From the IMG/VR virus record IMGVR_UViG_3300034101_003554, positions 64,001-128,000 of that record: DNA of 64,000 nucleotides, one strand, 5' to 3'. Source of the DNA: a virus. The translations under genes and the position numbers were made by a program. Positions within the stretch are counted from its first letter, which is position 1. Every line of letters starts with the position of its first letter. The notes under the pieces are model-generated. The model did no database searches, had not been told where the DNA came from, and was given only the letters and a program-made list of their open reading frames with translations. Below, piece after piece: positions 22,242 through 63,802 of the stretch.

Positions 22242-24089
22242 ATGGGAGCATTATTAGAAAGCGGTCTTGTTGGTAACATTGGTTTAAAACACCTTAAAGT
22301 TATCAAAGAAGATACTATTAACAAATGGGATAGATTAGGATTCCTTGATGGCCTTAGAGGTCACCTAAAAGAAAATGTTGCACAGTTATATGAAAACCAA
22401 GCATCATTCTTAATCAATGAGGCAACAGCTGATGGAAGTTCTGGTTCATTCGAAACAGTTGTATTTCCAATCGTTAGACGTGTATTCTCTAAATTATTAG
22501 CAAATGATATCGTATCTGTACAAGCTATGAACTTACCTATCGGTAAATTGTTCTACTTCGTACCTAAAATCCAAGGTTATAATGGTGGTGGTAATACCAA
22601 TTCTGGTGAACATTACGGTCCGTTTGGCGCTCCAGGAGGTCCTAGTGAAGTAAACGCAGGTTATGGTGATAGTGCTGGAGCTTATCAAAAAAATCTTTAT
22701 GATTTATTTTACGAAGGTAATGAACCTAGTTTAAATCCTGCCGGATTATTTGATTATTCTAAAGGTCAATGGTCTGCGATTACAACTGGTACAACAGTTC
22801 AAGTTTGGAGTAATGGTCTATTAACAGGTGCTACAGATCAATTTACAGCTAACACTACTATCAGAAAAGTAATCGTTAAACTTTGTAATTTCACTAACTT
22901 AGGTGTTGGTAAACTTATTGCTCCTGATGGTAATGAAATTGACACAGAATCTTTCTTGTCTGATTTGAAGCTTATGGCGACTAGCGCTAAAAGTGAATCA
23001 GCATTCTCATCAGATACTTGTGATGCAATATACAATGTCGATGGAAGTAAAAAATCATTATTGTTTAGAGTTGTAACTCAACAATATGGTAAAGGTATTG
23101 TTTCTCCAACATCAACACCAAATAAAACTACATGGGCTTCTAATGGTGGTGGTGGAACATTCAATGACATTTGTGGTCAAGATGGTTGTATCTATTTAGA
23201 AGTTGACCTTTCTTGTCCAGTATGTGCAACTTGTGATAATTCTAACACAATTGATGGTTACACTGGTACAACTTTAACAAGTACTTTATCTGGAGACGCT
23301 TTCACAGCTGTTTGGAGAAGATACGAAGAACTTGAATTCGAAGATAAAATTGGTGAAGTTTCTTTCGACCTTGAATCAGTAACTGTTTCTGTAACTGAAA
23401 GAAAACTTAGAGCTCAATGGTCTCCTGAACTTGCTCAAGACGTTGCAGCATTCCATAACATTGATGCTGAAGCTGAATTGACGGCTCTTCTTTCTGAACA
23501 AGTTGCTGCTGAAATCGATAGAGAAATCCTTCGTGACCTTAGAAAAGGTGCGGCTTGGAACTTGAGATGGGACTACAACGGATGGAGAAGAATTCAAAAT
23601 ACAACTTCTTACACTCAAAAAGACTGGAACCAAACGTTGATTACTGCTATCAACCAACTTTCAGCTCAAATTCACAAATCAACTCTTAGAGGTGGTGCTA
23701 ACTGGATTGTTGTTTCTTCTGAGGTTTCTGCAATCTTTGATGACTTGGAATACTTCCACGTATCAAATGCTTCTCCTGAGCAAGACCAATACAACATGGG
23801 TATTGAAAGAGTAGGTACATTAGCTGGTAGATACCAAGTATATCGTGACCCTTACTTCCCACCTAACCAAGTGTTAATCGGACATAAAGGTACATCACTT
23901 CTTGATACTGGTTACATCTACGCTCCGTATGTTCCACTTCAATTAACTCCAACAATGTATAATCCATTCAACTTTACTCCTATTAAGGGTATTATGACAC
24001 GTTACGCCAAAAAAATGGTGAACAACAGATTTTATGCCAGAATTACAGTTGATGGTGTTAGAACATTTGACTTACAAGAATTGAGATAG
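22242..24089 (+). CDS. Major capsid protein (T4 gp23-like) with Cys-rich insertion
   Basis: IVRRVF, VSVQAMNLPIG, RKLRAQWSPELAQD, DAEAELTALLSEQVAAEIDREI, GYIYAPYVPL, GIMTRYA; optimised codon usage. Confidence 0.97.
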   Translation: MGALLESGLVGNIGLKHLKVIKEDTINKWDRLGFLDGLRGHLKENVAQLYENQASFLINEATADGSSGSFETVVFPIVRRVFSKLLANDIVSVQAMNLPIGKLFYFVPKIQGYNGGGNTNSGEHYGPFGAPGGPSEVNAGYGDSAGAYQKNLYDLFYEGNEPSLNPAGLFDYSKGQWSAITTGTTVQVWSNGLLTGATDQFTANTTIRKVIVKLCNFTNLGVGKLIAPDGNEIDTESFLSDLKLMATSAKSESAFSSDTCDAIYNVDGSKKSLLFRVVTQQYGKGIVSPTSTPNKTTWASNGGGGTFNDICGQDGCIYLEVDLSCPVCATCDNSNTIDGYTGTTLTSTLSGDAFTAVWRRYEELEFEDKIGEVSFDLESVTVSVTERKLRAQWSPELAQDVAAFHNIDAEAELTALLSEQVAAEIDREILRDLRKGAAWNLRWDYNGWRRIQNTTSYTQKDWNQTLITAINQLSAQIHKSTLRGGANWIVVSSEVSAIFDDLEYFHVSNASPEQDQYNMGIERVGTLAGRYQVYRDPYFPPNQVLIGHKGTSLLDTGYIYAPYVPLQLTPTMYNPFNFTPIKGIMTRYAKKMVNNRFYARITVDGVRTFDLQELR

Positions 24090-24111
24090 TAAATCTTAAT
24101 AAAAAATGACG

Positions 24112-24141: not shown

Positions 24142-24196
24142 ATTAATTTAACATAAATAATTGATTTTATGTTCTTATTTCATATATTTATATTAT

Positions 24197-28899: not shown

Positions 28900-29082
28900 T
28901 TAATTGTTTAAACCATTAATTCCACCCAATGTGATTGCATTTAGTTGAATAACAACATTATTTTGTCCATCAGTCCAAATTGGATGTGGGGGAATGATTT
29001 CTTGAGTTGTACCACTACAAATTTCACATATAATAACTTCTGTATTTGCACTAGTACCTGTTGGATAAAAATAATTTGACAT
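28900..29082 (-). CDS. Small putative virion protein with CxxC
   Basis: 60 aa; ATATTTAT on the minus strand at 29102-29095. Confidence 0.65.
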   Translation of the reverse strand: MSNYFYPTGTSANTEVIICEICSGTTQEIIPPHPIWTDGQNNVVIQLNAITLGGINGLNN

Positions 29083-29109: not shown

Positions 29110-30576
29110 TTATTTATAGTTCACAATTTGGAACTTTATTTGTCTTTTATATGTGTTAACCTCCCCACTACTTTCAACTTTAATATCAATATAATATTCA
29201 TTTGGAATTTTATCTCTTGTATCAAAGATGAAATAGTATTCATTAGGAGTTCTATTAATTTGAGTCCAATCTTGAACTTGAACTTCAGTTTGTCCTTCTC
29301 TTACATATACACGATAATAAGCACTTACTTTTGGTAATAATTTATTTGTTGTATAAGCTTGTTTAATAATAACACCAACTTTTCTTATATCGGTATTAAA
29401 TATTTTTTCATCTTGTTTAATTCCATAATAATCAAATCCATATATTTTGGGGTCAATTGAATTTGTACCTATAGTAAATCCATTTTTAAATGGTTGTAAT
29501 GTAAAATCATTAAGTACATTAGGTAATGGAAATCCGTTATAAGTTAATCCGGTCCATTTATCTGAGAATGTACAAGGTGTTTTATACCCAATAAGTGGGG
29601 GAATAGTTACTTCATACACCCCTTGAGTTTTTTGACAACCAGTTAGACCTGATAAACTTGGTATAACATTTCCACTATTGTCAAGGATTGCTACACTTGG
29701 TAAGTTGTCTAAATTTATTGGGTTACCATCTTCATATAAATAAAGATATAACTTATTAACTTTTCCTAAAGTAAAATTATTTCTATCGTCTTCTATTAAA
29801 TCATCATATGATGTCTCCAAATAAGGTTCATAAAATGTTTGTGTATGTCTAGTAAAGAATTGAACTTCATATGTATCTGACGCACCAATTAATAATTCCA
29901 ACTGAGGTTTATAAGCAATAATCCAACCTGTAACTCCACTTAATGAACCATTTATAATTGTGTTTATTTCATTTGTCATATCAAATTCAATATTTTCATC
30001 ACCAAATTCAAAATGTTGTGTATCAACAATAGTTAATGCGGAGTATGGATAAGACCCTATATTATTATTGTTATAAATCCCAGGTTCAGTCCAAGTATCA
30101 ATTGTTGTTGTTTGATACCAATTTGATGGTCTATCTGAAAAATTTCTATCAATTGTGTTTAATTCATAAACTAAATTTCCGTAATCATAACCAACACCTT
30201 CATCCCACATTTGAGGGATTGATTCGTCAAAATCAATTGGTGGAATTCGTAATAAAACCAAATCAAAGGATGTTGCACGTTTTCTACTTTGAGATGTGGA
30301 AGTATTTAATAATTCTTTGTTAAATGTAGAAGTATTTGTCATTCTTAATGTATGTTTAACATTTAAAGAACAATCTAAAGATATAATTTTGTTATTATAT
30401 TTTTCTTTTAATAAATCTAAATTAAGATTAAAAATAAATCTACTAAATCCATTTGGGTATGGTGAAATTGGGGTATTACCATAAAAAAGTTCTGTCACAG
30501 GATTTCTCCCTGTATTGACAGAACTTTGAAAAATAATTGTATTATTTTTATTGAAATATGAATTATTGATTGACAT
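29110..30576 (-). CDS. Putative structural (baseplate/tail) protein
   Basis: Beta-rich composition, SGxT/TGxT motifs, late motif at 30600-30593. Confidence 0.6.
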   Translation of the reverse strand: MSINNSYFNKNNTIIFQSSVNTGRNPVTELFYGNTPISPYPNGFSRFIFNLNLDLLKEKYNNKIISLDCSLNVKHTLRMTNTSTFNKELLNTSTSQSRKRATSFDLVLLRIPPIDFDESIPQMWDEGVGYDYGNLVYELNTIDRNFSDRPSNWYQTTTIDTWTEPGIYNNNNIGSYPYSALTIVDTQHFEFGDENIEFDMTNEINTIINGSLSGVTGWIIAYKPQLELLIGASDTYEVQFFTRHTQTFYEPYLETSYDDLIEDDRNNFTLGKVNKLYLYLYEDGNPINLDNLPSVAILDNSGNVIPSLSGLTGCQKTQGVYEVTIPPLIGYKTPCTFSDKWTGLTYNGFPLPNVLNDFTLQPFKNGFTIGTNSIDPKIYGFDYYGIKQDEKIFNTDIRKVGVIIKQAYTTNKLLPKVSAYYRVYVREGQTEVQVQDWTQINRTPNEYYFIFDTRDKIPNEYYIDIKVESSGEVNTYKRQIKFQIVNYK

Positions 30577-30599
30577 TGATTCTCTTTAATCAATAAATA

Positions 30600-32325: not shown

Positions 32326-32326
32326 A

Positions 32327-34252: not shown

Positions 34253-34626
34253 TACTTATTTAGTTTATAAGTTGTATCTTTTTGGTTTATATCTTTTTCC
34301 AAAAGTTCTTTAATTGTTTCATCATCCATATTAATGTCTGAAATTGAAAAAGATTCTTTATTTGAATTAGATTTATCCCAAATTGATGATTGTAATTTAG
34401 ATAGGGATAATTTTTTCTCAACACAATCATTAATAATCTTTTGTTGTTTTTCAATGACAGGACCTATTAGTGTCATATCTTCAGGTTCTTTCATCATTGT
34501 TAACATTTTATTTTGAATTCGTATTGCAGTATTCCTTTGTTCTACTAATTCATTATAAATTTCTTGCATTAAGGATAAAATTGACTCCTTATTGAACTGA
34601 ATTTGTTTTTTTAAAGGTTTAGGCAT
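34252..34626 (-). CDS. Hypothetical coiled-coil protein
   Basis: TAATG stop/start overlaps on both sides. Confidence 0.75.
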   Translation of the reverse strand: MPKPLKKQIQFNKESILSLMQEIYNELVEQRNTAIRIQNKMLTMMKEPEDMTLIGPVIEKQQKIINDCVEKKLSLSKLQSSIWDKSNSNKESFSISDINMDDETIKELLEKDINQKDTTYKLNK

Positions 34627-35375
34627 TATTTAATAATTTTTTGTAACATATTAATATATATCGTCTTATATTTTTTTAATGAAGCCCTAATTTCTTTTGT
34701 TGATAAATTAGTCATTTCTCTCAAAGACAATAAAATAATATTTTTGTTAAATTTATTGTTTTTTGTACTTAAGAAAATTTCATCATATCTTTGGAAAATT
34801 TCGATTAATGCTTCACCTAATTTCATTTCATTTTCAGATAAATTTTGATTGGTTATATATCTTTTTAATTCCAATAAAAAACTTTTTATTGTCATTTCAG
34901 AGTCAATAACATCGTCATCAATTGAATATGAGAATGTTGGGTTGTTTTCTAAGTCAGTGGATATGTCTTCATATGATACCTTCCTATTAATTTCTTTTTG
35001 GTCTTTTAACATCTGTCCCATTAAATAATTTTTACAGATAGTACCAAAATAAGAATATGCCTTTTTTTCCTTTGAGGGTTGAAATTTTTCAATTTTAGTT
35101 ATAAGAAAAGAATGGGTATCCGCATGTAAGTCTACGAACTCCATATCTTTTCTATATAACTTATATCTTCTTATAATTGAAGAAATCATTTTATCCAAAG
35201 GGTCTTTTAAAAACTCATTGTAAATTCTATTTTTTTCAGTTACGGAATCGGTAGATAAAAATTCAACAACCGCATTTTCCTCGGCAACATCAAAATAATT
35301 TTTTTGTTTTGTTTTACGTCCTTTTTTTGGAATTAAATTGTTTTTTTCTTCATTGTTAACTTTTTCATTTGACAT
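34626..35375 (-). CDS. Phage sigma factor (T4 gp55-like)
   Basis: Region-2-like DLHADTHSFLITKIEKFQPSKEKKAYSYFGTICKNYL, comparable to gp55 NF.PEK..NP.AYFT. Confidence 0.7.
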   Translation of the reverse strand: MSNEKVNNEEKNNLIPKKGRKTKQKNYFDVAEENAVVEFLSTDSVTEKNRIYNEFLKDPLDKMISSIIRRYKLYRKDMEFVDLHADTHSFLITKIEKFQPSKEKKAYSYFGTICKNYLMGQMLKDQKEINRKVSYEDISTDLENNPTFSYSIDDDVIDSEMTIKSFLLELKRYITNQNLSENEMKLGEALIEIFQRYDEIFLSTKNNKFNKNIILLSLREMTNLSTKEIRASLKKYKTIYINMLQKIIK

Positions 35376-36175
35376 TATATGGTTGTTTCAAACTTTATTT
35401 GTCTATCTATAGTGAAGAAATATTCTTTCTTGGCGGACTCTAACCAAAATTTAACTTGAGGTTCATTAAGTTTTTCATCACCATTTTTGTAATTCCAAAA
35501 TATAGAACCTTGTCTCAAATTGGTATGTTTGTAACCAATCCTAGGTATAGTCATTGTTTTAACAGAATTATGTGTTAATCTCAAGAAAAATTCATAACCA
35601 AATGTTAAAACTATTGATGGTTTAAGCATTCCAACTTCAATAAATTTATCTTTTTTAATAGTAAGTCCAGATAATTGAAAGTTTTGAAATGTCTGTAAAA
35701 TTTCATTCGTTAAAACACCAATTTCATTATTTAAATTTAATGCAAATGTTGCCTCATTAGTAAATCCAATAAAGACACCCTTATCATCAGTATCAACAAC
35801 GATTGGTAAGAAACATCCAACATCTTTATATGAATCTGTATATTTCTTAACATTCTTAAACCATATTTTTGAATATTCATCATCAACCTCTAAAATACTT
35901 ACCCATTCAGATTCAGCATTTTCAACACCATAATTCACTTGTGAACAAAAATTTGGTTCATTGTTCCATTGTAGTTTTTTCACATTCAAATCACCAAAAT
36001 CATAACTATTAATATGATTAATTAAATTACTTTCAGGTGTATGAACAATAATAACTTCATTTGGGAGAACTTCTTGTTCTTTTATTGATTTTATTGCTTT
36101 CTCAAAATATTCCTCAAAGAATGGGAATACTGATGATTTAATTGGTAATATAACTGATAAATTAAGCTTGTCCAT
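35375..36175 (-). CDS. Glycosyltransferase, GT-A/GT2-like
   Basis: LSVILPI, VNYGVENAESEWVSILEVDDEY. Confidence 0.85.
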   Translation of the reverse strand: MDKLNLSVILPIKSSVFPFFEEYFEKAIKSIKEQEVLPNEVIIVHTPESNLINHINSYDFGDLNVKKLQWNNEPNFCSQVNYGVENAESEWVSILEVDDEYSKIWFKNVKKYTDSYKDVGCFLPIVVDTDDKGVFIGFTNEATFALNLNNEIGVLTNEILQTFQNFQLSGLTIKKDKFIEVGMLKPSIVLTFGYEFFLRLTHNSVKTMTIPRIGYKHTNLRQGSIFWNYKNGDEKLNEPQVKFWLESAKKEYFFTIDRQIKFETTI

Positions 36176-37235
36176 TTTCTTCTAATTCTTTAAATTTGTT
36201 TATTTGTTCTTCAAAGTTTTCTGCTCGTTTGGTCAAATAACTATCAAAAAGATTAATGACGTTATTATTAAATTCCTCCTCAGTTTGAAGTTTGGTTATC
36301 GTTTCATCCATATAACCATTTATGTTGTCATTAACGTTATCCTCTAACCAATTCTGTAAATAATCAGCAACAAAATCAACGATTTCATTTTTATTGTTAA
36401 TCCAAAAACCATTGTTCTCATTCATCCAATCTGGAACTATATTTGGTACTAATCCAATAACAGGTATTCCCATTTTCATTGACTCTAGAGGGAATGTACC
36501 ATATGAGCTAATTTCATCAATCCAAACTGAAAGGAAACATTCTTCCATATTTCTACTCATTTCAATCTCAGTCATACCTCTTAAATCTCTAAAACTTACC
36601 CATCTGTATTGTGGGAATTTGAGATAGAATGTTTTGATAAAATTGATTGTATCTCTTTGTTCTCTTGTATGGATACCAATAACTGGTTTAGCTGGTAATT
36701 TTGGTTTTTTAAAACTACCAGAAACCATTGGGGTTACAATATCAAACGATATATTACGCATAACGTTTGAAATATATTCTTTCATTTTTTCAGATGTAGT
36801 AATACATTTTAAAAACCCAAATTGATTCCAACTTTCACCAGGACGTAAGGTTTCAACAATGTAATCATACGATTGACATAATACAATTTTACCACAACCA
36901 ACTTTTGTAATTTGTGGCATAATAAATCCAAACAACTCAGGAACTATAATAAAATCTTCAGGTGATATTGCTAAGTTTTGATTTTCAATTGAACTATGTG
37001 TTAAATTTTTATACTTATCACCTAACCAATTTTCAACACCAACATAATCATTTTTCTCATGTAACATAATAATGTTAAACCCATTTTCATATAGGGTGTA
37101 GGCCATTCTGTATATGTGAGATAATGAGGCTTTGGCATTCCCCTTAGTGTCTTGTACAAAAAAGAAAATTTTTGATTGTTTTGTACGTAGTTTTTCAATA
37201 GATTGTTCTATTTTTGTAATTTGTTCTTGATTCAT
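36162..37235 (-). CDS. Glycosyltransferase, GT-B-like
   Basis: DFIIVPE; SYGTFPLESMKMGIPVIG donor-binding motif. Confidence 0.75.
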   Translation of the reverse strand: MNQEQITKIEQSIEKLRTKQSKIFFFVQDTKGNAKASLSHIYRMAYTLYENGFNIIMLHEKNDYVGVENWLGDKYKNLTHSSIENQNLAISPEDFIIVPELFGFIMPQITKVGCGKIVLCQSYDYIVETLRPGESWNQFGFLKCITTSEKMKEYISNVMRNISFDIVTPMVSGSFKKPKLPAKPVIGIHTREQRDTINFIKTFYLKFPQYRWVSFRDLRGMTEIEMSRNMEECFLSVWIDEISSYGTFPLESMKMGIPVIGLVPNIVPDWMNENNGFWINNKNEIVDFVADYLQNWLEDNVNDNINGYMDETITKLQTEEEFNNNVINLFDSYLTKRAENFEEQINKFKELEENGQA

Positions 37236-39717: not shown

Positions 39718-39743
39718 AATGTTTTTTTTATTTAAAAATTTTA

Positions 39744-40370: not shown

Positions 40371-40384
40371 ATTAATATATTTTT

Positions 40385-41437: not shown

Positions 41438-41439
41438 AT

Positions 41440-46324: not shown

Positions 46325-46890
46325 TAGTGTCTAACATTATACATTACTTCAGGAGTAATTACAAATTTATTTGATTGTTTTTTAAGTTCTGTCAAAAAAT
46401 CAAAATCTTCACCATCTCTGTTTTGAGAAAAAAACAACTCCTTAAAAATAGTTTTTTTGTAACAGAAAGAAATACCAACTGTTGCAAATTTTAATTCATT
46501 TAAATGAAATGGGGGTAAAACTAAGCCATTTTCATATGCCATTCTCCAAACAACAAAATCATACTTATTATATTTTTCAAATAATATTTTTACATAATTT
46601 TTGTCAATACTATCATCATCATCCAAAAAACCAATCCATTCAGTATCAACTAATTTTATACCTTCATTACGTACTAAACCTGATTGACCATTGTTAGGTC
46701 CGATTAAGCCTGTTTTTTCTATTTTAATTGTTTTGACTCTATCATCATCAAATGATTCACCATCTACACCATCATAAACAACAATAGCTTTCCAATTTGG
46801 CACAGATTGTTGTACTAAAGATTCTATAGTTCTTTTAAGTGTTGGTCTATTTAATGATGGTATTATAAATGTTATATTATTCTCAATCAT
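46324..46890 (-). CDS. GT2 glycosyltransferase
   Basis: ITFIIPS, RNEGI, WIGFLDDDD, GEDFDF. Confidence 0.88.
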   Translation of the reverse strand: MIENNITFIIPSLNRPTLKRTIESLVQQSVPNWKAIVVYDGVDGESFDDDRVKTIKIEKTGLIGPNNGQSGLVRNEGIKLVDTEWIGFLDDDDSIDKNYVKILFEKYNKYDFVVWRMAYENGLVLPPFHLNELKFATVGISFCYKKTIFKELFFSQNRDGEDFDFLTELKKQSNKFVITPEVMYNVRH

Positions 46891-49706: not shown

Positions 49707-50921
49707 TTATTTTATTAATGTTTTGTACCATTCAGCTCTAGTCTTAGTTACATTTCTTAAATCGTACTTGTCTTTAACACTCTCGTACAATCTTTCCCCA
49801 AGGTCGGTAATATAATTGGGATTATAAACTAAAGTCTTAATATATTTTGCCCAATCACTATGATTTCTATTTTCATGAACCAAAAGAGCATTACCATCAC
49901 CAAAAATACCATTTTTCATTGTATGTTTCAAATCAATAGTGTAAGGACCTACTTCAGATGCAATTAAAGCTTTTTTATAAAATCCAGCCTCAATAACTTT
50001 TAATTGTGACTTAACCCTATTAAAAATATGGTTTTTAATTGGGGCCATTGAAATATCAAACTTGGAATAATTTGTTGCGTAAGTATTAATATGTTTTGTC
50101 CAAACACGTCTATAAGGTAATGCTGTTGGATTTGGATATTCTTCATCTTTAAATTGATTTAAAAAGTTTTTATAACCTTCGTCAATAATTGAATAATTGT
50201 TTGTGAAAATTTCTTCATATCTAACCCATACAGTTTCTTCAGGTTTAATTGGCCTTTGTTTTCTTTCCCCAGTTGTTTGGTTTATTTCAGTCACCGAACC
50301 TCTAATATCAAAACCACATAAGACATATTGAACTTTGTCTTTCAAATTTGCATTCTTACCAACAAATCCCTCCAATAACTTTAAGTCGTGAAGATGTGAA
50401 GAACCACCTAACCATCCAACTCTAACTCTTCCAGATTCTTCTGTAGGTTGATTAAATTGGGGTTCGGTAGGGTTAATTGCATTAGGTAATACCACAACAT
50501 TCCTATTTAATTTTCTTATCTCATCCGCAAAGATACTTGTAGTTGTTGTAACATAACTTGCGACTTTTAAGTTCGCCATAATCTTTTCGTGTATCTTATC
50601 TTGAACAATCAATGAATGTATTGGGTGTTCTTTTCCAGGTAGCCAATAATCATCCAAATCTACAATAACAACAATACCAAGTGATTTTAAAAAATTAATT
50701 AAGGTTGGGGTCTGTTCATAAGTGTGTCCAATATTTCTATGAATATGAACAATTTGATATTGTTTCCAATAATTAACATTATTAATCTGTGGTTGATAAT
50801 CTATATCCACATGAAAGTCATCTGGATACATATTTTGTAACATAACATGGGGATCTACAGAACGAAATTTTCCTACACCGGTTGTGTCACTTGGGAGTAC
50901 AAGTACTTTTATTTTTGACAT
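49707..50921 (-). CDS. Glycosyltransferase, GT-B
   Basis: DLDDYW, VLPNAI, VGWLGGSSH, DISMAP…FNRVKSQLKVIEAG. Confidence 0.85.
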   Translation of the reverse strand: MSKIKVLVLPSDTTGVGKFRSVDPHVMLQNMYPDDFHVDIDYQPQINNVNYWKQYQIVHIHRNIGHTYEQTPTLINFLKSLGIVVIVDLDDYWLPGKEHPIHSLIVQDKIHEKIMANLKVASYVTTTTSIFADEIRKLNRNVVVLPNAINPTEPQFNQPTEESGRVRVGWLGGSSHLHDLKLLEGFVGKNANLKDKVQYVLCGFDIRGSVTEINQTTGERKQRPIKPEETVWVRYEEIFTNNYSIIDEGYKNFLNQFKDEEYPNPTALPYRRVWTKHINTYATNYSKFDISMAPIKNHIFNRVKSQLKVIEAGFYKKALIASEVGPYTIDLKHTMKNGIFGDGNALLVHENRNHSDWAKYIKTLVYNPNYITDLGERLYESVKDKYDLRNVTKTRAEWYKTLIK

Positions 50922-53681: not shown

Positions 53682-55892
53682 ATGTCCTATCAAAATATAA
53701 GACAATTTGTACCAAGAAATGATTTTCCAATATTATCGTTGGAAGTATTCGATATGTCATTAACCTCGGATGAAATGGATTTCAATCAAGAGGTTGTATT
53801 TTCCCCATATTTAATTGCTCAAACATATGGGAATAAGTTACCGATTTATTTTGATATCAATAGTACGGCATCAACACAAAATATAACTCTTACGTATAAA
53901 AACTATAATTTCAATAATATATTTGTATCTGAAAATTATTACAACCTAAAAAACGAAATATTAAGTTGTGAATTATCTGGTAGTTCTTGTGATATTGGAT
54001 TAGTTGGGATTGATAATGGTTTAGTAACTGGAATGACAGGGCAAACAATTATTTTTACTAATGGTTTATTACCAAATAATTTAAAATTTAATAGATTGTA
54101 TTTTGATAGAAGATTGAAATTACATCAAGTAACTGGATTTACATCATCTAATATAAAATTTTCAGGTTTTAATAAAACAATTTTGTATGAGGTTGTAAGT
54201 AAAGAAAGTCCTTTTGAGGGTAGATATCACGAACTATATGGTGGATTTTACCAAGGGTTCTATAAGTTATTTGGATATGATTATGAAATTTTCCCTGAAA
54301 GGATGAATAAAGGTTGGTCAGTTGAAATGGTTTTAAAACCAAGATTGATTAATGAATACAACCCAAATAGTGGGGAGACTACCTTAAATCAAATCTATCC
54401 CAATAATAAAAATATGTTCTTTTACATTGGTACTAGAGCGGAGAATAAATTTTATCATCACGCTGATGGTAGTCCAAATTGTTTTACTGGTTATACTAGA
54501 ATTACATCAGGATTGACTGGGTTATCAACTTGTGCTTGTTGTGATGAAAACATTAAAAGTAGATGTATCTTTGTATATCCACCACGTTCAGTAAATGGTA
54601 TACACGACCCGCATCTTAATTATGGTTGTAATAAGTGTGGAGGTAATAAAGAAACACAGATAACTTGTGGTTGTAGTTGTAATGATTTACCTTGTCAGAA
54701 TTGTGGTTGGGAATGTAAAACACATACTTGTGGTACAATAATTCCATTAACACCAACTCCAACACCTGAACCAACACCAACTCCAGTTTGTAACCCATTC
54801 CCACCTCAAACGACTTGTACACCAACTTGCACGAATTGTAATGATTGTACAAGTTGTGATGATTGTGCGACAAGTGGGTTTACATCAATTGAAGATACTT
54901 GTGAGAAGAATCCATTATTGGATACGATGAGTAATGCTTTGGGTATCAAACTATGTGGTGACCCAAAAAATCCTGGTATTGGTATTAGATTTTTAAGATT
55001 TACTGGTGGTTGTGAAATGACTGGAACTTGTACAACAGGGATGACTTATGAAACAGGCTATACAATAACTGAGATATGTACACCACCAATTTATCCTGAT
55101 TGTGAAAAAATAAATCCAGCTTGGTTAGAAGAAGAGCATTGGTTTCAAGTTAATATTGTCTGGGAACGATATGAATTTTTCAAAGATTGTGATTTATCTT
55201 TTAAAGGTGGATTAGGTGAAATAACTGAAAGAAAATATTTGGAATCTTTGGCTAATAATACAACATCGTTGATTGCCCCACCATATACAAGAGACAAAGT
55301 TGGTTTACAAGTTGATATTATCAATTTGAATGAGATATGGTTACAAGAAGAGAAATATAGAAAGGGTAGATTAAAGATTTATATCAATGGTAAAATATTT
55401 TATACGATTGAAGATTTTGAAGAGATTATACCTAGAGGATTAAATACAGATAAAGAAAAACAAGTCGGTGTTCCGTTTAATATTTCTTGGGGTGGAGGTA
55501 CTCAAGGGTTAAGAGAAAATTTAACCTTTACTGATATGTTAGGTACAGGTTATACTCAAGACCCAGAATGTTTTCCAACTAATGATTTGAGTGGTACTAC
55601 TTTAAGTGGATTAAATACAAACATATTAATTGAACAAAATTTTGCTGGAACATTTGAGGGTGGTATATCTCAATTTAGAATGTATGTTGAACCACTAACA
55701 GCACCAGAGGTTAAACATAATTTTATTTTATTAAAAAATACATTTAGGATGTTTAATCCTGATTGTCCTGATTGTACAACAATTCCTTGTGAAGTTAATG
55801 ATTTCACATACCAAATTATTAATAATAATATATTAACAGAAAATGGTAATAATATAATAACAGAAGATGGAAACAATATAATTATAGAATAA
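53682..55892 (+). CDS. Structural protein, LamG/ConA-like fold with Cys-rich and Pro-Thr insertions
   Basis: GWSVEMVLKP, LKIYINGK, FEGGISQFRMY…LT…EV; many CxxC; PTPTPEPTPTP. Confidence 0.6.
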   Translation: MSYQNIRQFVPRNDFPILSLEVFDMSLTSDEMDFNQEVVFSPYLIAQTYGNKLPIYFDINSTASTQNITLTYKNYNFNNIFVSENYYNLKNEILSCELSGSSCDIGLVGIDNGLVTGMTGQTIIFTNGLLPNNLKFNRLYFDRRLKLHQVTGFTSSNIKFSGFNKTILYEVVSKESPFEGRYHELYGGFYQGFYKLFGYDYEIFPERMNKGWSVEMVLKPRLINEYNPNSGETTLNQIYPNNKNMFFYIGTRAENKFYHHADGSPNCFTGYTRITSGLTGLSTCACCDENIKSRCIFVYPPRSVNGIHDPHLNYGCNKCGGNKETQITCGCSCNDLPCQNCGWECKTHTCGTIIPLTPTPTPEPTPTPVCNPFPPQTTCTPTCTNCNDCTSCDDCATSGFTSIEDTCEKNPLLDTMSNALGIKLCGDPKNPGIGIRFLRFTGGCEMTGTCTTGMTYETGYTITEICTPPIYPDCEKINPAWLEEEHWFQVNIVWERYEFFKDCDLSFKGGLGEITERKYLESLANNTTSLIAPPYTRDKVGLQVDIINLNEIWLQEEKYRKGRLKIYINGKIFYTIEDFEEIIPRGLNTDKEKQVGVPFNISWGGGTQGLRENLTFTDMLGTGYTQDPECFPTNDLSGTTLSGLNTNILIEQNFAGTFEGGISQFRMYVEPLTAPEVKHNFILLKNTFRMFNPDCPDCTTIPCEVNDFTYQIINNNILTENGNNIITEDGNNIIIE

Positions 55893-55904: not shown

Positions 55905-57281
55905 ATGGCGAATGTAAAAATAACTGACTTACCACTTATAACTGGAATAACAATCAATGATGTAATACCGATTGTTGATGTTGATACTCTTGTTACTTCT
56001 AAAGTAACAATTGGTGACCTTAAAAATTATTTAGATACATCATTTACTGGTGGTACAGTTAGTGGCGAAACAACATTTATTAATGGATTAAGTGCAACAA
56101 CTTTTTCGGCCACCACAATTGATTTATGTTCTACTAGTGGGACTTTGTTTACAAGTAGTATTTCAGGTTGTTCACCAATTGAATTTTTAAGTGAATCATT
56201 TTTTACTAAAGGTTTATCAGCATTAACATTAAGTTCATCCACGATTTATGTTGATGGTCAAATTTTAGAATCGTTTACTGGTGGCACTGTTAGTGGTAAT
56301 ACTGAATTTACTAATGGATTAACTGCAAACACTATATCCGCGACAACATATTTTGGGTTACCTACTGATGTGTATGTGACTGGTGGAACATATTCAAATG
56401 GTGATATTACATTCACAAACAATACTGGTGGTACATTTAATGTAAATGGGTTATTTACTGGAAGTACTGATGTGTATGTGACTGGTGGAACATATTCAAA
56501 TGGGGATTTAACATTAGTTAATAATACTGGTGGCACATTTAATGTAAGTGGATTTTATACTGGTGGGACTGATGTATTTGTTACTGGTGGGACTTATAAT
56601 AATAATACATTTACCTATACAAATAATACAGGTGGAACTTTTGATGTGTCATTTAATTCGGTTAGTGGATTAACATCAAATGGTACTATTGAGAGTAATG
56701 TCATATCAGCAACAACAATAAGTGGTGGAACATTGTATGGGGATGGTAGTAATTTAAGTGGAATTAGTCAAACACCATTTTATCAAGAGTCTATATGGAC
56801 ATCATTTCAAACATCAGTAAGAACCACATCATCAACAAATTATGGTTCAGGTGGAGCAATGGCGGTACCATTTTATGTGAATAAAACAGTTACAATTTTA
56901 AATTGTAGTATTGAATGTTCACTAATAGCCGTAAATCCTACAAATTGTGAATTTGCAATTTATGATGTAATAAGTGGTACTGTAACTAATAGATTATACC
57001 ATCAAACATTCCAAATAACAGGAACTGGTATTGTTACATTTAGTAGTGTTAATTTAACATTACAACCAGGTATTTACGCATACGCTACAACTCAAGATAT
57101 AATACTTGGATGGAGAAGTTTCACCCTCCCTAATAGTGTATTAGGAGTTAATTCAAGTATGGGTACGGATACATTTATTTCGGCAAAGACACAAGCGTCA
57201 AATAATTTGTTGAATCCATTTGGTTCTCAAACTAATAATAATAGTAATTGCCCATTAGCAATTTTTGAAATTCAAATTTAA
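55905..57281 (+). CDS. Fibre/decoration protein with 34-aa VTGGT repeats
   Basis: N-terminal KITDLP…IPIVD; TDVYVTGGTYSNG repeats at 102-bp spacing. Confidence 0.65.
   Translation: MANVKITDLPLITGITINDVIPIVDVDTLVTSKVTIGDLKNYLDTSFTGGTVSGETTFINGLSATTFSATTIDLCSTSGTLFTSSISGCSPIEFLSESFFTKGLSALTLSSSTIYVDGQILESFTGGTVSGNTEFTNGLTANTISATTYFGLPTDVYVTGGTYSNGDITFTNNTGGTFNVNGLFTGSTDVYVTGGTYSNGDLTLVNNTGGTFNVSGFYTGGTDVFVTGGTYNNNTFTYTNNTGGTFDVSFNSVSGLTSNGTIESNVISATTISGGTLYGDGSNLSGISQTPFYQESIWTSFQTSVRTTSSTNYGSGGAMAVPFYVNKTVTILNCSIECSLIAVNPTNCEFAIYDVISGTVTNRLYHQTFQITGTGIVTFSSVNLTLQPGIYAYATTQDIILGWRSFTLPNSVLGVNSSMGTDTFISAKTQASNNLLNPFGSQTNNNSNCPLAIFEIQI
56363..56680 (+). repeat. 102-bp tandem coding repeat (3 units), also present in ORF 58442
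   Basis: TACTGATGTGTATGTGACTGGTGGAACATATTCAAATGG at 56363 and 56465; a degenerate third unit follows. Confidence 0.85.
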
Positions 57282-57621: not shown

Positions 57622-58428
57622 ATGAGTCAAACGATAATAATAAGTAGTATCAATTATGATGGAGAATTAGCTAGTGTTATATTCACACCACAAGGTAGTG
57701 TGAATGTTATTAATTTGGGAAATGTTACATTACCTTTTACATTCCAAGCGGGGTTATTAACACCACCCCAAGATGTTTATGGTACTTATACAATATTGGT
57801 TGAGAATGGTGATTGTCCAAACATTTTAAATGTTCCAAGACCTACGCCTACCCCAACCCCAACTGTTACACCAACAAGAACGGTTACCCCAACTCCTACA
57901 GTTACACCAACACCTACTTCAACGTTTGACCCTTGTAGAGTTACTCAAACACCAACAAATACTCCAAGTAATACACCGACAAGGACTCCAACAAGAACTC
58001 CTACGGCAACACCAACAAGTACTTGTCCAGGACCTTCACCTACAAATACTCCGACACCAACAACAACTCCAACTCCAACACCTTCAAGAACTCCTGAAGA
58101 GTCAAAGATTTATTGGGGTAAATTTAGTGGTGGTACTATTACAAGTGGTGATACAACTTTATTATCAAGTGGTTATACTTCTAATCCAACAAATACTTAT
58201 AGAAGTATTCCGAGTGGTTTCGCTTATGGTTATATTCTAATACCAACTGGTTTAACGCAACCATCAGAATTTAGAAATAGTAATGTAGGTTGTTCAGGTA
58301 GTAATATACCATTTAACAATATAGGTACGATAATCATAGTTGACGCTAACGGATTTAGCATAACATATAATGTTTACAGAACTTTCTTCCAAATCACTGA
58401 TGGTTTCGATGTATGGTTATGTAGTTAA
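57622..58428 (+). CDS. Virion surface protein with a long mucin-like Pro-Thr linker
   Basis: About 85 aa of PTPT repeats between two beta-rich domains. Confidence 0.7.
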
Positions 58429-58441: not shown

Positions 58442-60466
58442 ATGGGTTCTTTTAGTTTATCAGGTGGTGTTGAAGTTTTTGGTTTTATTTCTCCAAGTAA
58501 TACCACAGACCAATATCCAGTTATTGACCCCTTATATGGTATTGATGGTTTAAGAAACGTTAATACTTTAAGTGATTTAAATTTAATTCCGACACTTAGG
58601 AGAAGGGCTGGTATGCTTGTGGGTGTAAGTGGAGGGACTATTTATTATAAACTAAATTTACCCCCTTGGAATGGCACACTATCGGATTGGAGTTTATTTG
58701 AGTTAGGTTTTACTGGTGGTACTGTAACTGGAAATACAATTTTCACTAATGGTATTACAGCTAATACTATTTCCGCTTCAACATATCTTAATTTACCTAT
58801 TGATGTTTTTGTAACTGGAGGAACTTATGATAATGTATTAGGTATTGCAACATTTACAAATAATACTGGTGGAACATTTAATGTCAGTGGTTTATTCACA
58901 GGGGCGACTGATATATTTGTTACAGGTGGGACTTATAATGATAATACATTTACATTCACAAATAATACTGGTGGAACTTTTGATGTTTCATTTAATTCTG
59001 TAACTGGATTAACAATTAATGGGGATTTAAATGTAACTGGTAATACGATAGTTGATGGTATTACTGCAAATACTATTTCAGCTACAACTTATGAAAATTT
59101 ACCAATTGACATCAGAGTAACTGGTGGAACATATTCTTTAGGTACTGCAACCTTCACAAACAATACTGGGGGTACATTTAATGTCACAGGATTTTATACG
59201 GGAAATACTGACAACTATATCACAGGTGGAACTTTTGATAAAAATACTGAAACTTTAACATTGACTGATGTAACTGGGGGTACGATTAGTATTTCAGGTT
59301 TCAGTGATGTATTTGTAACGGGTGGTACATTTTCAGGTGGTAGTATAGTTTTTACAAATAATAGTGGTGGAACATTTAATGTATCAGGCATATCATCATT
59401 TGATACATTTGTCACAGGATTTTCTTATTCAAATAATACATTCACAATATCTCAAAATAGTGGTACATCATTAACGGCAACAATTAATTCGGTAACGGGA
59501 TTAACGGCATCAACAATATCCGCAGCAACATTTAATGGGGATATTGTTGCGCTAAATGGAACATCAGTTACAAATCCAACATATAGAACATCATTAGGTG
59601 GTTCTAATTTAAGTCCAAGGGCGACATTTGGTAGTGAATCAAATGCCGCAAGTTTACATAGGTATATTTTTGACCCAGTTAATCAAAATGGATTAGTATT
59701 TTCTATAGCAAATAATGGTAGTGTTTATATCGCAAGAGGTGGAATTGTTGCTGGTGGTTCAGGTTCTATATCACAAGAAATTGGTGATTTAAGATTTTTT
59801 ACTTTAAATTCACCTAATGCTACTTTATTCTCAGAAAGAATGAGATTAGACCATTTTGGTAATCTTGGTATTGGTACAACATCTCCATCTGAAAAATTAG
59901 ATGTTGTTGGAAAAACAAAAACAACAAGTATTCAAATAACATCAGGGGCAACAAATGGATATGTTTTAACTTCAGATGTTAGTGGTAATGGTACTTGGCA
60001 ACAAATACCTTCATTTACTGGTGGTACGATAACTGGTAGTACAAATTTCACAAACGGATTAACCGCGAATACAATATCTGCAACGACATATCAAAATCTT
60101 CCAATTGATTATAGGTCGTTTGGTGTTGTTGTTGATGGTGCTGGTTCAGTAATAACAACTGGTAATAAAGGGTATTTAAGTTTACCATATTCAGGTTATA
60201 TTACAGGGTGGAGAATACTTGGTGACCAATCAGGTTCAACATCAATTGATGTATGGAAGACTAATTATATTGGATTTCCTCCAACATCTGGGGATAGTAT
60301 AACTGGAGGTAATTATCCAAATTTAACTTCACAACAAATAAATGAGGATTATTCTTTATTAGGTTGGACAACAGGTTTTACAAGTGGTGATATAATTTCA
60401 TTTAATGTTTTATCCGCTAGTACAACAACAAGAATAAACTTAACAATTAATGTTATTAAAACATAG
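58442..60466 (+). CDS. Fibre protein with VTGGT/TANT repeats
   Basis: IPTLRRRAGMLVGV N-domain, multiple VTGGT units, ERMRL…GNLGIGTTSPSEKLDV. Confidence 0.7.
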   Translation: MGSFSLSGGVEVFGFISPSNTTDQYPVIDPLYGIDGLRNVNTLSDLNLIPTLRRRAGMLVGVSGGTIYYKLNLPPWNGTLSDWSLFELGFTGGTVTGNTIFTNGITANTISASTYLNLPIDVFVTGGTYDNVLGIATFTNNTGGTFNVSGLFTGATDIFVTGGTYNDNTFTFTNNTGGTFDVSFNSVTGLTINGDLNVTGNTIVDGITANTISATTYENLPIDIRVTGGTYSLGTATFTNNTGGTFNVTGFYTGNTDNYITGGTFDKNTETLTLTDVTGGTISISGFSDVFVTGGTFSGGSIVFTNNSGGTFNVSGISSFDTFVTGFSYSNNTFTISQNSGTSLTATINSVTGLTASTISAATFNGDIVALNGTSVTNPTYRTSLGGSNLSPRATFGSESNAASLHRYIFDPVNQNGLVFSIANNGSVYIARGGIVAGGSGSISQEIGDLRFFTLNSPNATLFSERMRLDHFGNLGIGTTSPSEKLDVVGKTKTTSIQITSGATNGYVLTSDVSGNGTWQQIPSFTGGTITGSTNFTNGLTANTISATTYQNLPIDYRSFGVVVDGAGSVITTGNKGYLSLPYSGYITGWRILGDQSGSTSIDVWKTNYIGFPPTSGDSITGGNYPNLTSQQINEDYSLLGWTTGFTSGDIISFNVLSASTTTRINLTINVIKT

Positions 60467-60469: not shown

Positions 60470-63400
60470 ATGGCTAAAAATTTAATTGAGTTTAATGTTT
60501 ACGATGCCGATGTAGTCCCATATAGTGGTTATAATTCAAATAAAACTGTTTTAGGACCTCAGATTTATAAATTTACTGGTTCAAATTCATCCGACTTTTA
60601 TATTGGGCCAAATGAAACTACATTCAGAGATATAACTCAAGATACTGGTGTTTCAAACTGGGGGGATATTGCAGTTATTCCTTATAGTACTAATAAACAT
60701 TGGTTATTTGCATTAAAAGGGTTTGCAACAACTCTTATACCAACTGAAATATGTATGTACGAATTTGATAAATTAACATACACATATACATATGTTGGTG
60801 CGGTATCTTGTTCTAGTACAAATACACCAGGGAGTCGTAGTCATTATGGATTTAGTGCTAATTTAACATATTATACTGGAGGGACGGTTGAGGTTCTCGG
60901 AAATTCAGTTACAGGGACAAGTACAGATTGGATTACAAATAGAATACCAATTGGTGTAAGGATAGGCTTTGGGTCGAATAATCCTCAAGATATTACTACT
61001 TGGTATAGAATTGGTAATTATCCATTAATGAATTCAACTCCATCGTTATTAAATGGTGGGGTTACAGCAATCGCATTTGATACTTCAGGTAACACATATA
61101 TTGGTGGAGCATTTACAACTTATAGTGGTATTTCAGTTGGCCGTTTGGCTAAGATAACAAGTGGTGGAACTTTGGATACAACATTCAATACTAATATTGG
61201 TACCGGATTAAATGCGTTTCCACATACAATAAAAGTCGATTCAAGTGGTAACTTATATATTGGAGGGACGTTTACAACATTTTCAGGTTTAGCCAACAAC
61301 TTTATAATTAAACTAAATAGTAATGGGACTAAAGATACTTCATTTGATAATACAACAGGTTTTAATTTGACTGTTTATGAAATTCAATTAGATAGTACTG
61401 GTAAATTATATGTTGGGGGTGACTTTACAACATATAAAGGTGTTACGAATAATCGTATAATAAAATTAAATACTGATGGATCAAAAGATGTATCTTTTGA
61501 TAACTCAACTGGATTTAATAGTAATGGGGTATATACTATTGAGGTTGTTGAAAACAATAGTATTTATGTTGGGGGTGGTTTTACAACATATAAAGGTGTT
61601 ACAAACAATAGGTTGATTAAAATATTAAGTGGTGGAACTAAAGATGCAACATTTGATAATACAACAGGACTAAATGTTAGTGCTTATAAAATAATATACA
61701 AACCATCAACAGGTTCAATTATTGTTGCCGGTGAATTTACTACTTGGAAAGGTGTTAGTAATGTGTATTTAACCGAAATTTCATCTGGAGGTACGGCTTT
61801 GATTTCCTCAATGTCCTCTCAAATTATATATAAGATGACTAAAGATTCTTCAGATAATATATATTGTTATGGAGCAAATCAAATAATAACAAAAAGAAAT
61901 ATAAATACATTAATAGCTAATCCTAATTTTAATCCAAATATAATATACACAACAAATGCGACTGTAGGTGAAATTATTGCTGTAGATCCAACTGGAACAA
62001 GATTATATGTTAGTAGTGGTAATATTACTATAGATAGTGGTATAGTTTGTGTTAGTACATCAGATGGTGAAAGAACTCCTAATTTTATTACAAATGCACA
62101 AAACATAACAAGTCAAGTTATAACATTAACTTCATTTGCTGGAACTTTCCCTATCGGAACTCCTTATGTTATTGAAAATTTAATATTTTCACAATATAAT
62201 AACACTTATGGTGTCTGTTTAATTCAAGGTTTAAGTAAAGACGATTTTACAGTATCACCAACTTCTATACCAACACCAGCATTTAATTACGCTGGTTTAT
62301 CCAAAGGTAAATATGTTTTATATGATGGATTTTATACATCAGGTAGTGGGTATAATACCCTAGGTATAAGTACTACAATTAAAGATACTATGTTGTTAGT
62401 ACCTGAAAATTCATCAACACAATATTTGTATTCTATGAATACCACAGGTCGTGTAGCTAGATTTAATATTAAAAATCCATTAATAACACAATTAGGTACT
62501 AATACTCAAGGTCTTCTGAGATATAGTATTCCATCTCAATTATTATTAACAGGAGTCCCTATTATAACCCCAACTGGAGCTGCTATAAGTGGTTTAGGCA
62601 CAGGTAAATTTGATATAGGTACGATGCAAAGTGGTTCTGCCATAGGTATTCCATCATTGTTTACTGATAATACTGGGATAGTACAAACCCCAATATCTGG
62701 GTTAACAAATGAAGGTGTTCCTTTATATACTTATATGCCTGAAGTTCCTCCAGGTTCAACAACAACATATACCGCAGCGGGTAATGTTGGTAGGGTTTAT
62801 TATATACCTAATATAGATAGAATTATAGTATTAAACTCTTCATCAACTGCTAAAAGTTATATCACAAAGTATCAATTAAATATGATACAACCCACGTTAA
62901 GTAGTACTCTTTATGGTAGAGATACCTTTAATAATTTAGCTTATAATAATTCGTTTGATACTACATTTTTATTTAATGGGGGACAATTACAAGGTAATAC
63001 ATCAAGTAGTTTAGCACCAAAATATCCTGATACATTAGGTACTGGTTTCTTTGGTAAGATATTAGATGGTGTTTTACATTTATGTAGACCATTGGCAACA
63101 ATTCAAAATAATTTGTATGCAGTTCCTCTTGCTTGTGAGGCTTTATATGTTGATTATTCTAATAATGTTTTTATAACTCCTAAAATTACATTACCTAATG
63201 CTATTGCGATAAATGGATTATTTATCAATTCACAAAAACAATATGGAAGTTATCCATTCGCAATACCACCTGAACCAATTGTAATTCATTATAGGACTAC
63301 AGGCATAACTGGAAACACTGGGGTTTGGACAGAATTTACTGATGTCCAGTCACTAAATGATGATATAATTTGTGATGGGGTTCTTAACTCAATAGATATA

Positions 63401-63802
63401 CAATTTAGATTTTCATATAAAGTTGCGGGTAATACTTGTTTAACTAACAAAATATATGGATTTAGTTTATTGTATGAAGACGATAGAACCGATTCACATT
63501 ATAGTCCATCTGTATCTAAATCTAGTTTAAGTAATAGAACATTTGCATGGAGACAAGAGCAATTATGGAATAGTAGTATTCCTGATTTGAGGATTAGATT
63601 ATATAACTCAACTAATAGTAATATTGTATTTTATGATACTGTATTAACATCATCATCAGGTACTTGGGAATACTCAACCGATAATGGTGTTACTTGGTTA
63701 CCTTGGTCTTCATCTGCCGATGTGATTGGTAATTATATTCGTTATGTTGCCGACTTTATACCTGTTGGAATAAAATTGAGAGTAGGATTAAATAGAATTT
63801 AA
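60470..63802 (+). CDS. Large adhesin/tail protein with delta-60-type beta-propeller repeats
   Basis: Repeated YIGG.FTTY.G…IIKLN.DG.KD.SFDN.TG units. Confidence 0.7.
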   Translation: MAKNLIEFNVYDADVVPYSGYNSNKTVLGPQIYKFTGSNSSDFYIGPNETTFRDITQDTGVSNWGDIAVIPYSTNKHWLFALKGFATTLIPTEICMYEFDKLTYTYTYVGAVSCSSTNTPGSRSHYGFSANLTYYTGGTVEVLGNSVTGTSTDWITNRIPIGVRIGFGSNNPQDITTWYRIGNYPLMNSTPSLLNGGVTAIAFDTSGNTYIGGAFTTYSGISVGRLAKITSGGTLDTTFNTNIGTGLNAFPHTIKVDSSGNLYIGGTFTTFSGLANNFIIKLNSNGTKDTSFDNTTGFNLTVYEIQLDSTGKLYVGGDFTTYKGVTNNRIIKLNTDGSKDVSFDNSTGFNSNGVYTIEVVENNSIYVGGGFTTYKGVTNNRLIKILSGGTKDATFDNTTGLNVSAYKIIYKPSTGSIIVAGEFTTWKGVSNVYLTEISSGGTALISSMSSQIIYKMTKDSSDNIYCYGANQIITKRNINTLIANPNFNPNIIYTTNATVGEIIAVDPTGTRLYVSSGNITIDSGIVCVSTSDGERTPNFITNAQNITSQVITLTSFAGTFPIGTPYVIENLIFSQYNNTYGVCLIQGLSKDDFTVSPTSIPTPAFNYAGLSKGKYVLYDGFYTSGSGYNTLGISTTIKDTMLLVPENSSTQYLYSMNTTGRVARFNIKNPLITQLGTNTQGLLRYSIPSQLLLTGVPIITPTGAAISGLGTGKFDIGTMQSGSAIGIPSLFTDNTGIVQTPISGLTNEGVPLYTYMPEVPPGSTTTYTAAGNVGRVYYIPNIDRIIVLNSSSTAKSYITKYQLNMIQPTLSSTLYGRDTFNNLAYNNSFDTTFLFNGGQLQGNTSSSLAPKYPDTLGTGFFGKILDGVLHLCRPLATIQNNLYAVPLACEALYVDYSNNVFITPKITLPNAIAINGLFINSQKQYGSYPFAIPPEPIVIHYRTTGITGNTGVWTEFTDVQSLNDDIICDGVLNSIDIQFRFSYKVAGNTCLTNKIYGFSLLYEDDRTDSHYSPSVSKSSLSNRTFAWRQEQLWNSSIPDLRIRLYNSTNSNIVFYDTVLTSSSGTWEYSTDNGVTWLPWSSSADVIGNYIRYVADFIPVGIKLRVGLNRI

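Follow-up and report, generated by a model that had tools for sequence, protein, structure and literature searches.

Does a short peptide pattern that recurs in unrelated surface proteins of a phage mark the places where phage enzymes attach sugars, or does it serve the fold of these proteins? The question is raised by a 64-kb stretch of viral DNA (the window), bases 64001-128000 of the IMG/VR virus record IMGVR_UViG_3300034101_003554, in which a capsid protein and several fibre-type proteins share the tetrapeptide [ST]-[GA]-x-T and an island of glycosyltransferase (GT) genes lies between them. The whole record has 141,041 bp with a G+C content of 29% and a completeness of 48% (CheckV), complete relatives being 290-309 kb long, and the window belongs to an uncultured T4-like jumbo phage. 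The best explanation as a whole, which we consider evenly balanced between right and wrong, combines a structural role of the tetrapeptide with a separate glycosylation of the virion by a GT60-type enzyme acting on Pro-Thr tracts. Open reading frames (ORFs) are designated in the following by their lower coordinate in the window (Table 1).

The number of [ST][GA]xT sites expected by chance was obtained from 2000 whole-protein shuffles and from 500 shuffles within 30-residue windows, and overall the two procedures agreed. Contig-wide, 104 sites are present in ten virion-type ORFs (5,683 aa) against 22.6 expected, a 4.6-fold excess, and the remaining 167 ORFs (35,210 aa) are at chance level, with 20 sites against 19.3. 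The original prediction had listed the tetrapeptide in unrelated surface proteins and, by eye, had found it rare in enzymes; all the listed tetrapeptides are present in the ORFs concerned, and the excess survives correction for composition and is confined to virion-type proteins. The 12 sites of ORF 53682 (1.06-1.2 expected) were reached by none of the 2000 whole-protein and none of the 500 local shuffles; the 22 sites of ORF 55905 (3.4-4.1 expected) and the 32 of ORF 58442 (5.4-5.5 expected) were likewise reached by none of the 2000 whole-protein shuffles. Both procedures gave an excess for the capsid protein 22242 (5 sites against 1.2-1.4) and ORF 29110 (4 against 0.5), and further excesses were found in the ORF that follows 60470 (63806-66817; 10 against 3.9-4.1) and in one beyond the window (67205-68020; 5 against 1.1). 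No significant excess was seen in ORF 57622 (4 against 1.5; reached by 125 of 2000 whole-protein and 15 of 500 local shuffles) or, with either procedure, in ORF 60470 (8 against 4.2-4.6).

The pattern is narrowly defined. On scanning all 8,000 patterns of the form a-b-x-c in 53682, it was found that TGxT (7 against 0.6) and SGxT (4 against 0.29) were among the top three, and among the virion proteins without repeats, taken as a pool, both came directly behind Pro-Thr patterns. Reversed, shifted and substituted versions of the motif in 53682 were at chance. Threonine is required at position 4, since Ser or Val/Ile/Leu at this position gave no enrichment, and the same was true of Asn/Asp at position 2. 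All synonymous codons are used at the motif sites in background proportions; selection therefore acts on the protein, and an origin at the DNA level was ruled out by this diversity. The tetrapeptide is thus a real motif of the outer virion proteins, under selection at the level of the protein.

Conservation was followed in three protein families. The orthologues of 53682 (n = 32, down to 46% identity) carry 5-14 sites each against about 1.5 expected, and in this family the motif is enriched 7.05-fold, with twelve control motifs, including the host sequon, at 0.25-2.2. Seven columns of the alignment carry the motif in at least half of the sequences, and at these conserved sites Ser and Thr interchange at position 1 with Gly and the final Thr fixed. 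Outside the seven columns, an orthologue has on average 5.1 additional sites, whose positions change, where 1.0 would be expected. The orthologues of 29110 (n = 5) have 1-7 sites at differing positions against 0.7 expected, and the relatives of the capsid protein (560-638 aa) have 3-4 sites each, with two positions conserved. As read from these alignments, turnover at constant density in 53682, 29110 and the capsid insert is the strongest point in favor of a functional linear motif.

The proteins richest in sites, 55905 and 58442, are of a different kind. Their sites are mostly the T-G-G-T cores of a unit of about 17 residues, together with a conserved module of four consecutive sites. The repeat family of 55905 has more than 1,592 metagenomic homologues, and in 120 homologues the two Thr of TGGT were kept in 437 of 481 and in 418 of 464 repeat units; for 55905, retention of TGGT is given as 91-96% of the units. 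Judged by its sequence, such invariance is what a structural repeat looks like, and in a low-confidence model of the 55905 repeat region TGGT lies just ahead of beta-strands. When the repeat fibre was compared with cultured phages by tblastn, matches were restricted to the end domains, the repeats being masked by the low-complexity filter.

Control phages were then considered with respect to the same count. No enrichment was found in the T4 fibre and baseplate proteins gp34 (1 against 4.0), gp12 (2 against 2.0) and gp37 (7 against 3.3), in the fibre proteins of S-SSM7 (1.4-1.5-fold, without motif excess) or in ORF325 of XacN1 (8 against 5.8). The proteins of Flavobacterium phage immuto are mostly not enriched, the exceptions being one fibre protein (10 against 3.9) and one small structural protein. 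The notion that all fibre proteins carry the motif is ruled out by these four phages, and the excess is a property of the lineage and not of fibres in general. Immuto was also tried as a GT-free control and failed as such, two GT2 genes being present.

The original prediction had read the tetrapeptide as the acceptor of a phage-specific cytoplasmic O-glycosyltransferase, for which the core enzymes 49707, 46892, 36162 or 35375 could be proposed, and which would lay a coat of many glycans over the fibres and the capsid insert. Much of the above agrees with this proposal: the motif is directional and needs its Thr at position 4, Ser and Thr can be exchanged at position 1 with Gly and the final Thr fixed, the sites of 53682 and 29110 turn over with their density kept, as in the sequons of glycan shields, the excess is found in ten virion-type ORFs and not in 167 others or in the fibres of T4, immuto (mostly), S-SSM7 and XacN1, and there are several conserved soluble GTs without an assigned acceptor. 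However, the motif is not depleted in the phage's own enzymes, which share the cytoplasm (20 against 19.3 in 167 ORFs), which is hard to reconcile with a plain signal of four residues recognized by an enzyme in the cytoplasm. Within the proteins that have most sites, it is a fixed part of a repeat. Nor does it follow, from phage to phage, the module of GT60-type and HtrL-like genes that is described below: the 164-kb record behind locus L055 has this module and a Pro-Thr protein, with unenriched fibres and no homologue of 49707; XacN1, which has homologues of the GT60-type and HtrL-like enzymes, is likewise unenriched in ORF325; and the record behind L056 has 49707 and motif-enriched fibres. 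As to the core enzymes 49707 and 46892, they occur together with the motif in all members of the family, so that their link to it cannot be told apart from common descent. The covariation of motif and enzyme is therefore negative for the GT60/HtrL module and confounded by common ancestry for the core GTs. We know of no O-glycosyltransferase that uses a sequon resembling [ST][GA]xT. Taken together, a role of the tetrapeptide as a sequon is unlikely, and just as unlikely is a two-system arrangement, in which the core soluble GTs would act on [ST]-[GA]-x-T beside a GT60-type enzyme on Pro-Thr, giving a dense coat whose chemistry is re-tooled by cassette exchange. The tetrapeptide is probably a structural turn element, in which a Gly turn capped by Thr may start beta-strands.

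If the tetrapeptide is structural, the sugars may be placed elsewhere. Three co-oriented genes follow the fibre operon and encode a PF11397 protein, a GT25 enzyme and a two-domain protein with HtrL_YibB. The match to PF11397 is strong (249.5 bits against a cut-off of 21, E 8.7e-74, profile positions 95-351 of 352), and the same protein matches the glycosyltransferase family phrog_24687 (E 3.5e-170). A D-S-H sequence at residues 92-94, found by pattern only, resembles the D-x-H metal site, and a sequence search of the PDB with this enzyme gave no match. The gene has 76 relatives in IMG/VR, which are nearly always co-oriented behind fibre genes and are followed by one to four variable genes and then by a conserved HtrL-like gene. 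In 26 of 36 non-redundant loci a Pro-Thr-tract ORF is among the three genes upstream, and in 17 of the 36 a tetrapeptide-enriched ORF lies within 10 kb. DNA coding for (PT)3 occurs 24, 27 and 31 times in three enzyme-bearing phages (two relatives and XacN1) and is absent from T4 and immuto, neither of which has a tblastn match to the GT60-like enzyme; the reversed-pattern control gave 0-1 occurrences. By gene context, the GT60 module tracks Pro-Thr tracts rather than the tetrapeptide. A more distant clade has a diverged paralogue of 32-41% identity as a second copy behind the GT60-like gene (L055:11215-12180, L056:11244-12527). A Pro-Thr ORF lies directly upstream in L055, and none is nearby in L056 and the group of 55-57% identity.

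Characterized members of PF11397 add alpha-N-acetylglucosamine (GlcNAc) to Thr of mucin-like or Thr-rich peptides and thereby start mucin-type chains (PMC3769586). For the candidate GT60-type enzyme, Pro-Thr tracts are likelier acceptors than the tetrapeptide, because they fit the known acceptor type of this family, which is the sole family here that has characterized members acting on proteins. The likeness to the protist enzymes (Trypanosoma cruzi, Dictyostelium, Skp1 Gnt1) consists in the strong family match, a candidate D-x-H motif and the Thr/Pro-rich candidate acceptors adjoining the phage gene, just as the protist enzymes act on Thr-rich peptides (PMC3769586). In contrast to these, the present enzyme is encoded by a phage, has no membrane anchor and is predicted to work in the bacterial cytoplasm. 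Gnt1, a cytoplasmic enzyme, transfers GlcNAc to the hydroxyproline of Skp1, and such a route was dropped here as unlikely, since searches of the contig and of four complete relatives did not find a prolyl 4-hydroxylase; for the same reason the sugar is more likely to be accepted by Thr than by hydroxyproline.

A second precedent is the Xanthomonas jumbo phage XacN1, whose virions contain glycoproteins as revealed by Schiff reagent (periodic acid-Schiff positive), and for which the authors proposed that phage GTs make them (PMC5852040). Its ORF334 shares 48% identity with the GT60-like enzyme, and its ORF330 shares 41% with the HtrL-like protein along the entire length (E 1e-154); the two flank variable genes beside a baseplate-adjacent protein of 3,313 aa with Pro-Thr tracts. 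XacN1 differs in belonging to another phage lineage with a host of another phylum, in having a carbamoyltransferase in the module, in lacking a homologue of the core GT 49707 and in the absence of a motif excess from ORF325. In view of the GT60 module and these homologues, phage-encoded cytoplasmic glycosylation of some virion proteins appears reasonably probable; this part of the original prediction stands, and what does not stand well is the tetrapeptide as its sequon.

Thus, the preferred reading joins a structural tetrapeptide to a GT60-type enzyme which would put the first sugar on Thr of Pro-Thr tracts in neighboring fibre proteins, whereupon the variable GTs and the conserved HtrL-like two-domain protein may extend the glycan. 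The counts of the motif, the families of the enzymes, the synteny and the exchange of the cassette are shown by the data, and it is inferred which residues accept the sugars, what these sugars are and that most of the proteins belong to the virion. Several points weigh against this reading. The structural view leaves the shared excess in non-homologous proteins, including the capsid insert, unexplained, and the 5.1 extra moving sites of 53682 (1.0 expected) are not easily explained by structure, nor are those of the 29110 orthologues. The AlphaFold2 model of 53682 (32 orthologues; mean predicted local distance difference test score, pLDDT, 50) and that of the 55905 repeat region (67 sequences; pLDDT 58) are too poor to map the sites. 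Most of the virion labels rest on position and composition, 29110, 53682 and 55905 being without PHROG or Pfam matches. In XacN1 the stained bands were not identified (PMC5852040), and the phage has a second GT.

With respect to 53682, nine of its 12 sites fall in low-confidence segments of the model, which span 62% of the protein. A Foldseek comparison of the model with the PDB returned nothing below E 0.015, the weak matches being to lectin-type jelly rolls only. Inserts rich in Cys, some columns of which are invariant Cys, run through the lectin-like jelly roll at residues of about 280-480 and adjoin the Pro-Thr tract, and several of the motif sites fall one to three residues after a Cys.

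The GT island (34626-50921) has the head genes on one side and the fibre operon on the other and contains, by Pfam and PHROGs, ten GT genes, four methyltransferases and one epimerase/dehydratase, in line with the approximate numbers given originally; genes for PhoH, a dUTPase/dCTP-deaminase-like protein and an exonuclease are interspersed. A search for 19-residue hydrophobic segments in ORFs 34252-50921 and the GT60 trio gave only one buried-type stretch, which is in the exonuclease, so that the GTs and methyltransferases are predicted to be soluble, without membrane segments. Gene order was observed to be kept in more than 80 related loci: 53682, five divergent small genes, GT 49707, the exonuclease, the dUTPase and GT 46892 are followed by a variable stretch, PhoH, two small genes, GTs 36162 and 35375 and the genes 29110-32327. 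The conserved block at 34626..37235 is 53-70% identical in five relatives. Exchange of the variable stretch was also observed directly. Locus L103 has flanks 94-97% identical to the window and, between them, other methyltransferases and a different GT; locus L122 has an acyltransferase and a BKACE enzyme instead. By its predicted enzymes, 38926-46890 is a swappable sugar-tailoring cassette. A comparison of this region with L103:14617-19384 and L122:14742-18575 gave 7-12 intervening genes that are unrelated and still encode sugar-tailoring enzymes. A megablast search of the island against cultured phages gave no match. Homologues of 49707 with 27% identity, two copies per genome, are found in about 140 cultured phages, mostly of the E. 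coli Phapecoctavirus type with genomes of about 150 kb.

On the preferred reading, the 16-kb island, in which the conserved GTs 35375, 36162, 46892 and 49707 surround the swappable GT/methyltransferase cassette, would either elaborate the Pro-Thr glycans or make another glycoconjugate. A serious rival, if an unlikely one, is that the island, and possibly the GT60 module too, modifies glycans of the host envelope (lipopolysaccharide, capsule or general O-glycans) and so blocks superinfection or keeps progeny off debris, the tetrapeptide being structural and the Pro-Thr tracts plain linkers. The polymorphic GT clusters of jumbo cyanophages have been interpreted in this way (PMC7824862), and GT10/GT11 fucosyltransferase-type enzymes, GT25, FkbM, TylF and a dehydratase/epimerase are typical of surface-polysaccharide loci, where cassettes are likewise swapped, as they are here between near-identical phages. 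However, no candidate for an initiating polyprenyl-phosphate transferase, flippase, polymerase or ligase was found in the 141 kb; the absence of these membrane components is not proven, because half of the genome is missing. The characterized PF11397 members act on proteins (PMC3769586), and the module tracks Pro-Thr tracts, the virions of XacN1 staining for glycoprotein (PMC5852040).

Transcription bears on the same alternative. The promoter-like motif [AG]TATTTAT lies 8-45 nt (mostly 20-26 nt) upstream of a same-strand start codon in 35 of 78 occurrences and precedes 20610, 24928, 28900, 29110, 53682 (20 nt upstream) and, divergently, 52812-53627, so that a divergent pair occupies the 54 nt that separate 53627 from 53682. 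In this AT-rich DNA the T4 late promoter TATAAATA was uninformative, and [AG]TATTTAT fits better. This motif of the structural genes was not found inside the GT island, which favors a function of the island at the host envelope; against this, read-through into the island is possible from the 53627 site, which is divergently paired with that of the fibre gene 53682. Since this site has no convincing terminator between it and the island, co-transcription of the island with late genes appears possible.

It was also considered whether the GTs hypermodify bases of the phage DNA with sugars, for which glucosylated and arabinosylated hydroxymethyl-pyrimidines (T-even phages) and metavirome GT clusters are precedents. 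A dUTPase/dCTP-deaminase-like gene and an exonuclease are inside the island, a thymidylate-synthase-family protein is present in complete relatives, the GT60-like gene of XacN1 lies less than 10 kb from DNA polymerase and RNase H, and diverse DNA glycans made by viral GTs are the subject of a published paper. The thymidylate-synthase matches, however, score like ordinary ThyA (E 1e-56 to 1e-90), and the GT60 module stands behind fibre genes (76 loci). No DNA glycan known to us comes near to requiring ten GT genes, some of them of fucosyltransferase-type families, together with four sugar-type O-methyltransferases. Hypermodification of DNA is thus very improbable.

Table 1. Positions of the features discussed, in window coordinates unless another locus is named
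Feature	Position	Strand	Description
Major capsid protein, T4 gp23 type	22242..24089	+	PF07068, E 2e-73; variable insert at about residues 150-345 with 5 motif sites
60-aa ORF	28900..29082	-	two motif sites; promoter-like motif upstream
Conserved 488-aa protein, putative virion protein	29110..30576	-	4 motif sites; without Pfam or PHROG family
Conserved block	34626..37235	-	249-aa protein without known family, GT2 (35375-36175), GT-B-like (36162-37235)
GT genes	35375, 36162 (weak), 38926, 41440, 43577, 44880, 45698, 46324, 46892 (two domains), 49707 (PHROG match)		
Methyltransferases	39744, 42267, 43018 (weak), 44269		
Epimerase/dehydratase	40385		
Predicted variable sugar-tailoring cassette	38926..46890	-	GT47/RXYLT1-like, FkbM methyltransferase, NAD epimerase/dehydratase, GT10, TylF O-methyltransferase, weak methyltransferase, GT2, FkbM, GT11, GT25, GT2
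Two-domain GT2, conserved cassette anchor	46892..48403	-	PF13712 + PF00535; 42-97% identity in relatives
Conserved core glycosyltransferase	49707..50921	-	phrog_7162, E 8e-44; without Pfam family; 144 IMG/VR relatives
Fibre or baseplate-distal protein, non-repetitive	53682..55892	+	12 sites; lectin-like jelly-roll core, Cys-rich inserts, short Pro-Thr tract
Repeat fibre protein	55905..57281	+	22 sites, mostly TGGT repeat core; without PHROG or Pfam match
Pro-Thr-tract protein	57622..58428	+	tract of about 80 residues at residues ~70-150, then 4 motif sites
Repeat fibre protein	58442..60466	+	32 sites; phrog_10330 virion structural protein; C-terminal domain common to cyanophage virion structural proteins
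1,110-aa beta-propeller (DUF5122) fibre-type protein	60470..63802	+	PF17164, E 8e-33
PF11397 (GT60-type polypeptide GlcNAc transferase) gene	L001:5079-6329, just outside the window	co-oriented with fibre operon	58 nt after the last fibre gene
[AG]TATTTAT sites	7801, 9787, 14121, 19461, 20586, 24900, 29102, 30600, 53650, 53662; others on the contig		

Two further genes lie beside those of the table. An endonuclease VII-like gene (24161-24877, + strand; phrog_1035, E 1.7e-14) is located directly 3' of the major capsid gene, and a small conserved gene between the fibre operon and the GT island (51662-52051, - strand) has a weak WYL-domain match (E 1e-3), which is below the cut-off.

The host phylum is very probably Bacteroidota, because the DUF5122 propeller protein is accompanied by a type IX secretion sorting domain near the contig end. 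The latter is at the C-terminus of a 404-aa ORF (L001:8708-9922, - strand, that is contig 135708-136922; PF18962, E 3.5e-9); it would be unusual for a phage to encode a protein destined for the type IX secretion system of the host, and the domain supports this assignment. The closest cultured relative of the capsid protein 22242 is the capsid protein of Flavobacterium phage immuto (38% identity). In the moraphage paper, GT-rich jumbo phages of Bacteroidota were described, the role of the enzymes being left unsettled there.

Among known systems, the general O-glycosylation of Bacteroidota resembles the present case in being a protein O-glycosylation system of the presumed host phylum; it is periplasmic. 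Its motif, D-(S/T)-(A/I/L/V/M/T) (PMC8550257), shows no enrichment among the 53682 orthologues (ratio 0.63). In mycobacteriophages, as quoted from Freeman et al. (2023), phage GTs encoded near structural genes decorate capsid and tail subunits, which is the likeness; they differ in having one or two GTs and C-terminal acceptor tails, whereas the present phage has about 13 GT genes and a cassette that can be swapped, and its candidate acceptors are in the fibres. The GT/lipopolysaccharide clusters of jumbo cyanophages are also of many families, with a content that varies among related phages (PMC7824862). They differ in being assigned to the host surface polysaccharide, the fibres of S-SSM7 are without motif excess, and a protein-type GT module with Pro-Thr tracts is present in our phage. 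Chlorovirus PBCV-1 glycosylates its capsid with virus-encoded enzymes independently of the endoplasmic reticulum, using fucose-type and O-methylating enzymes and an atypical acceptor motif; it is a virus of eukaryotes, and its glycans are N-linked to Asn. The likeness to it lies in virus-encoded cytoplasmic GTs together with sugar methyltransferases.

If it is true that abundant freshwater jumbo phages coat their fibres with sugars, the glycans would affect host range, adhesion to particles and mucus, and evasion of recognition by the host, and the swappable cassette would be the phage counterpart of bacterial O-antigen diversity. A GT60-type enzyme from a bacterial virus, being compact and soluble, would in addition be a useful tool where mucin-type glycosylation is wanted. 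The tetrapeptide signal itself, which is 7-fold, directional and subject to positional turnover, is a sign of either an acceptor motif of a new kind or a structural element not yet described for the fibres of phages.

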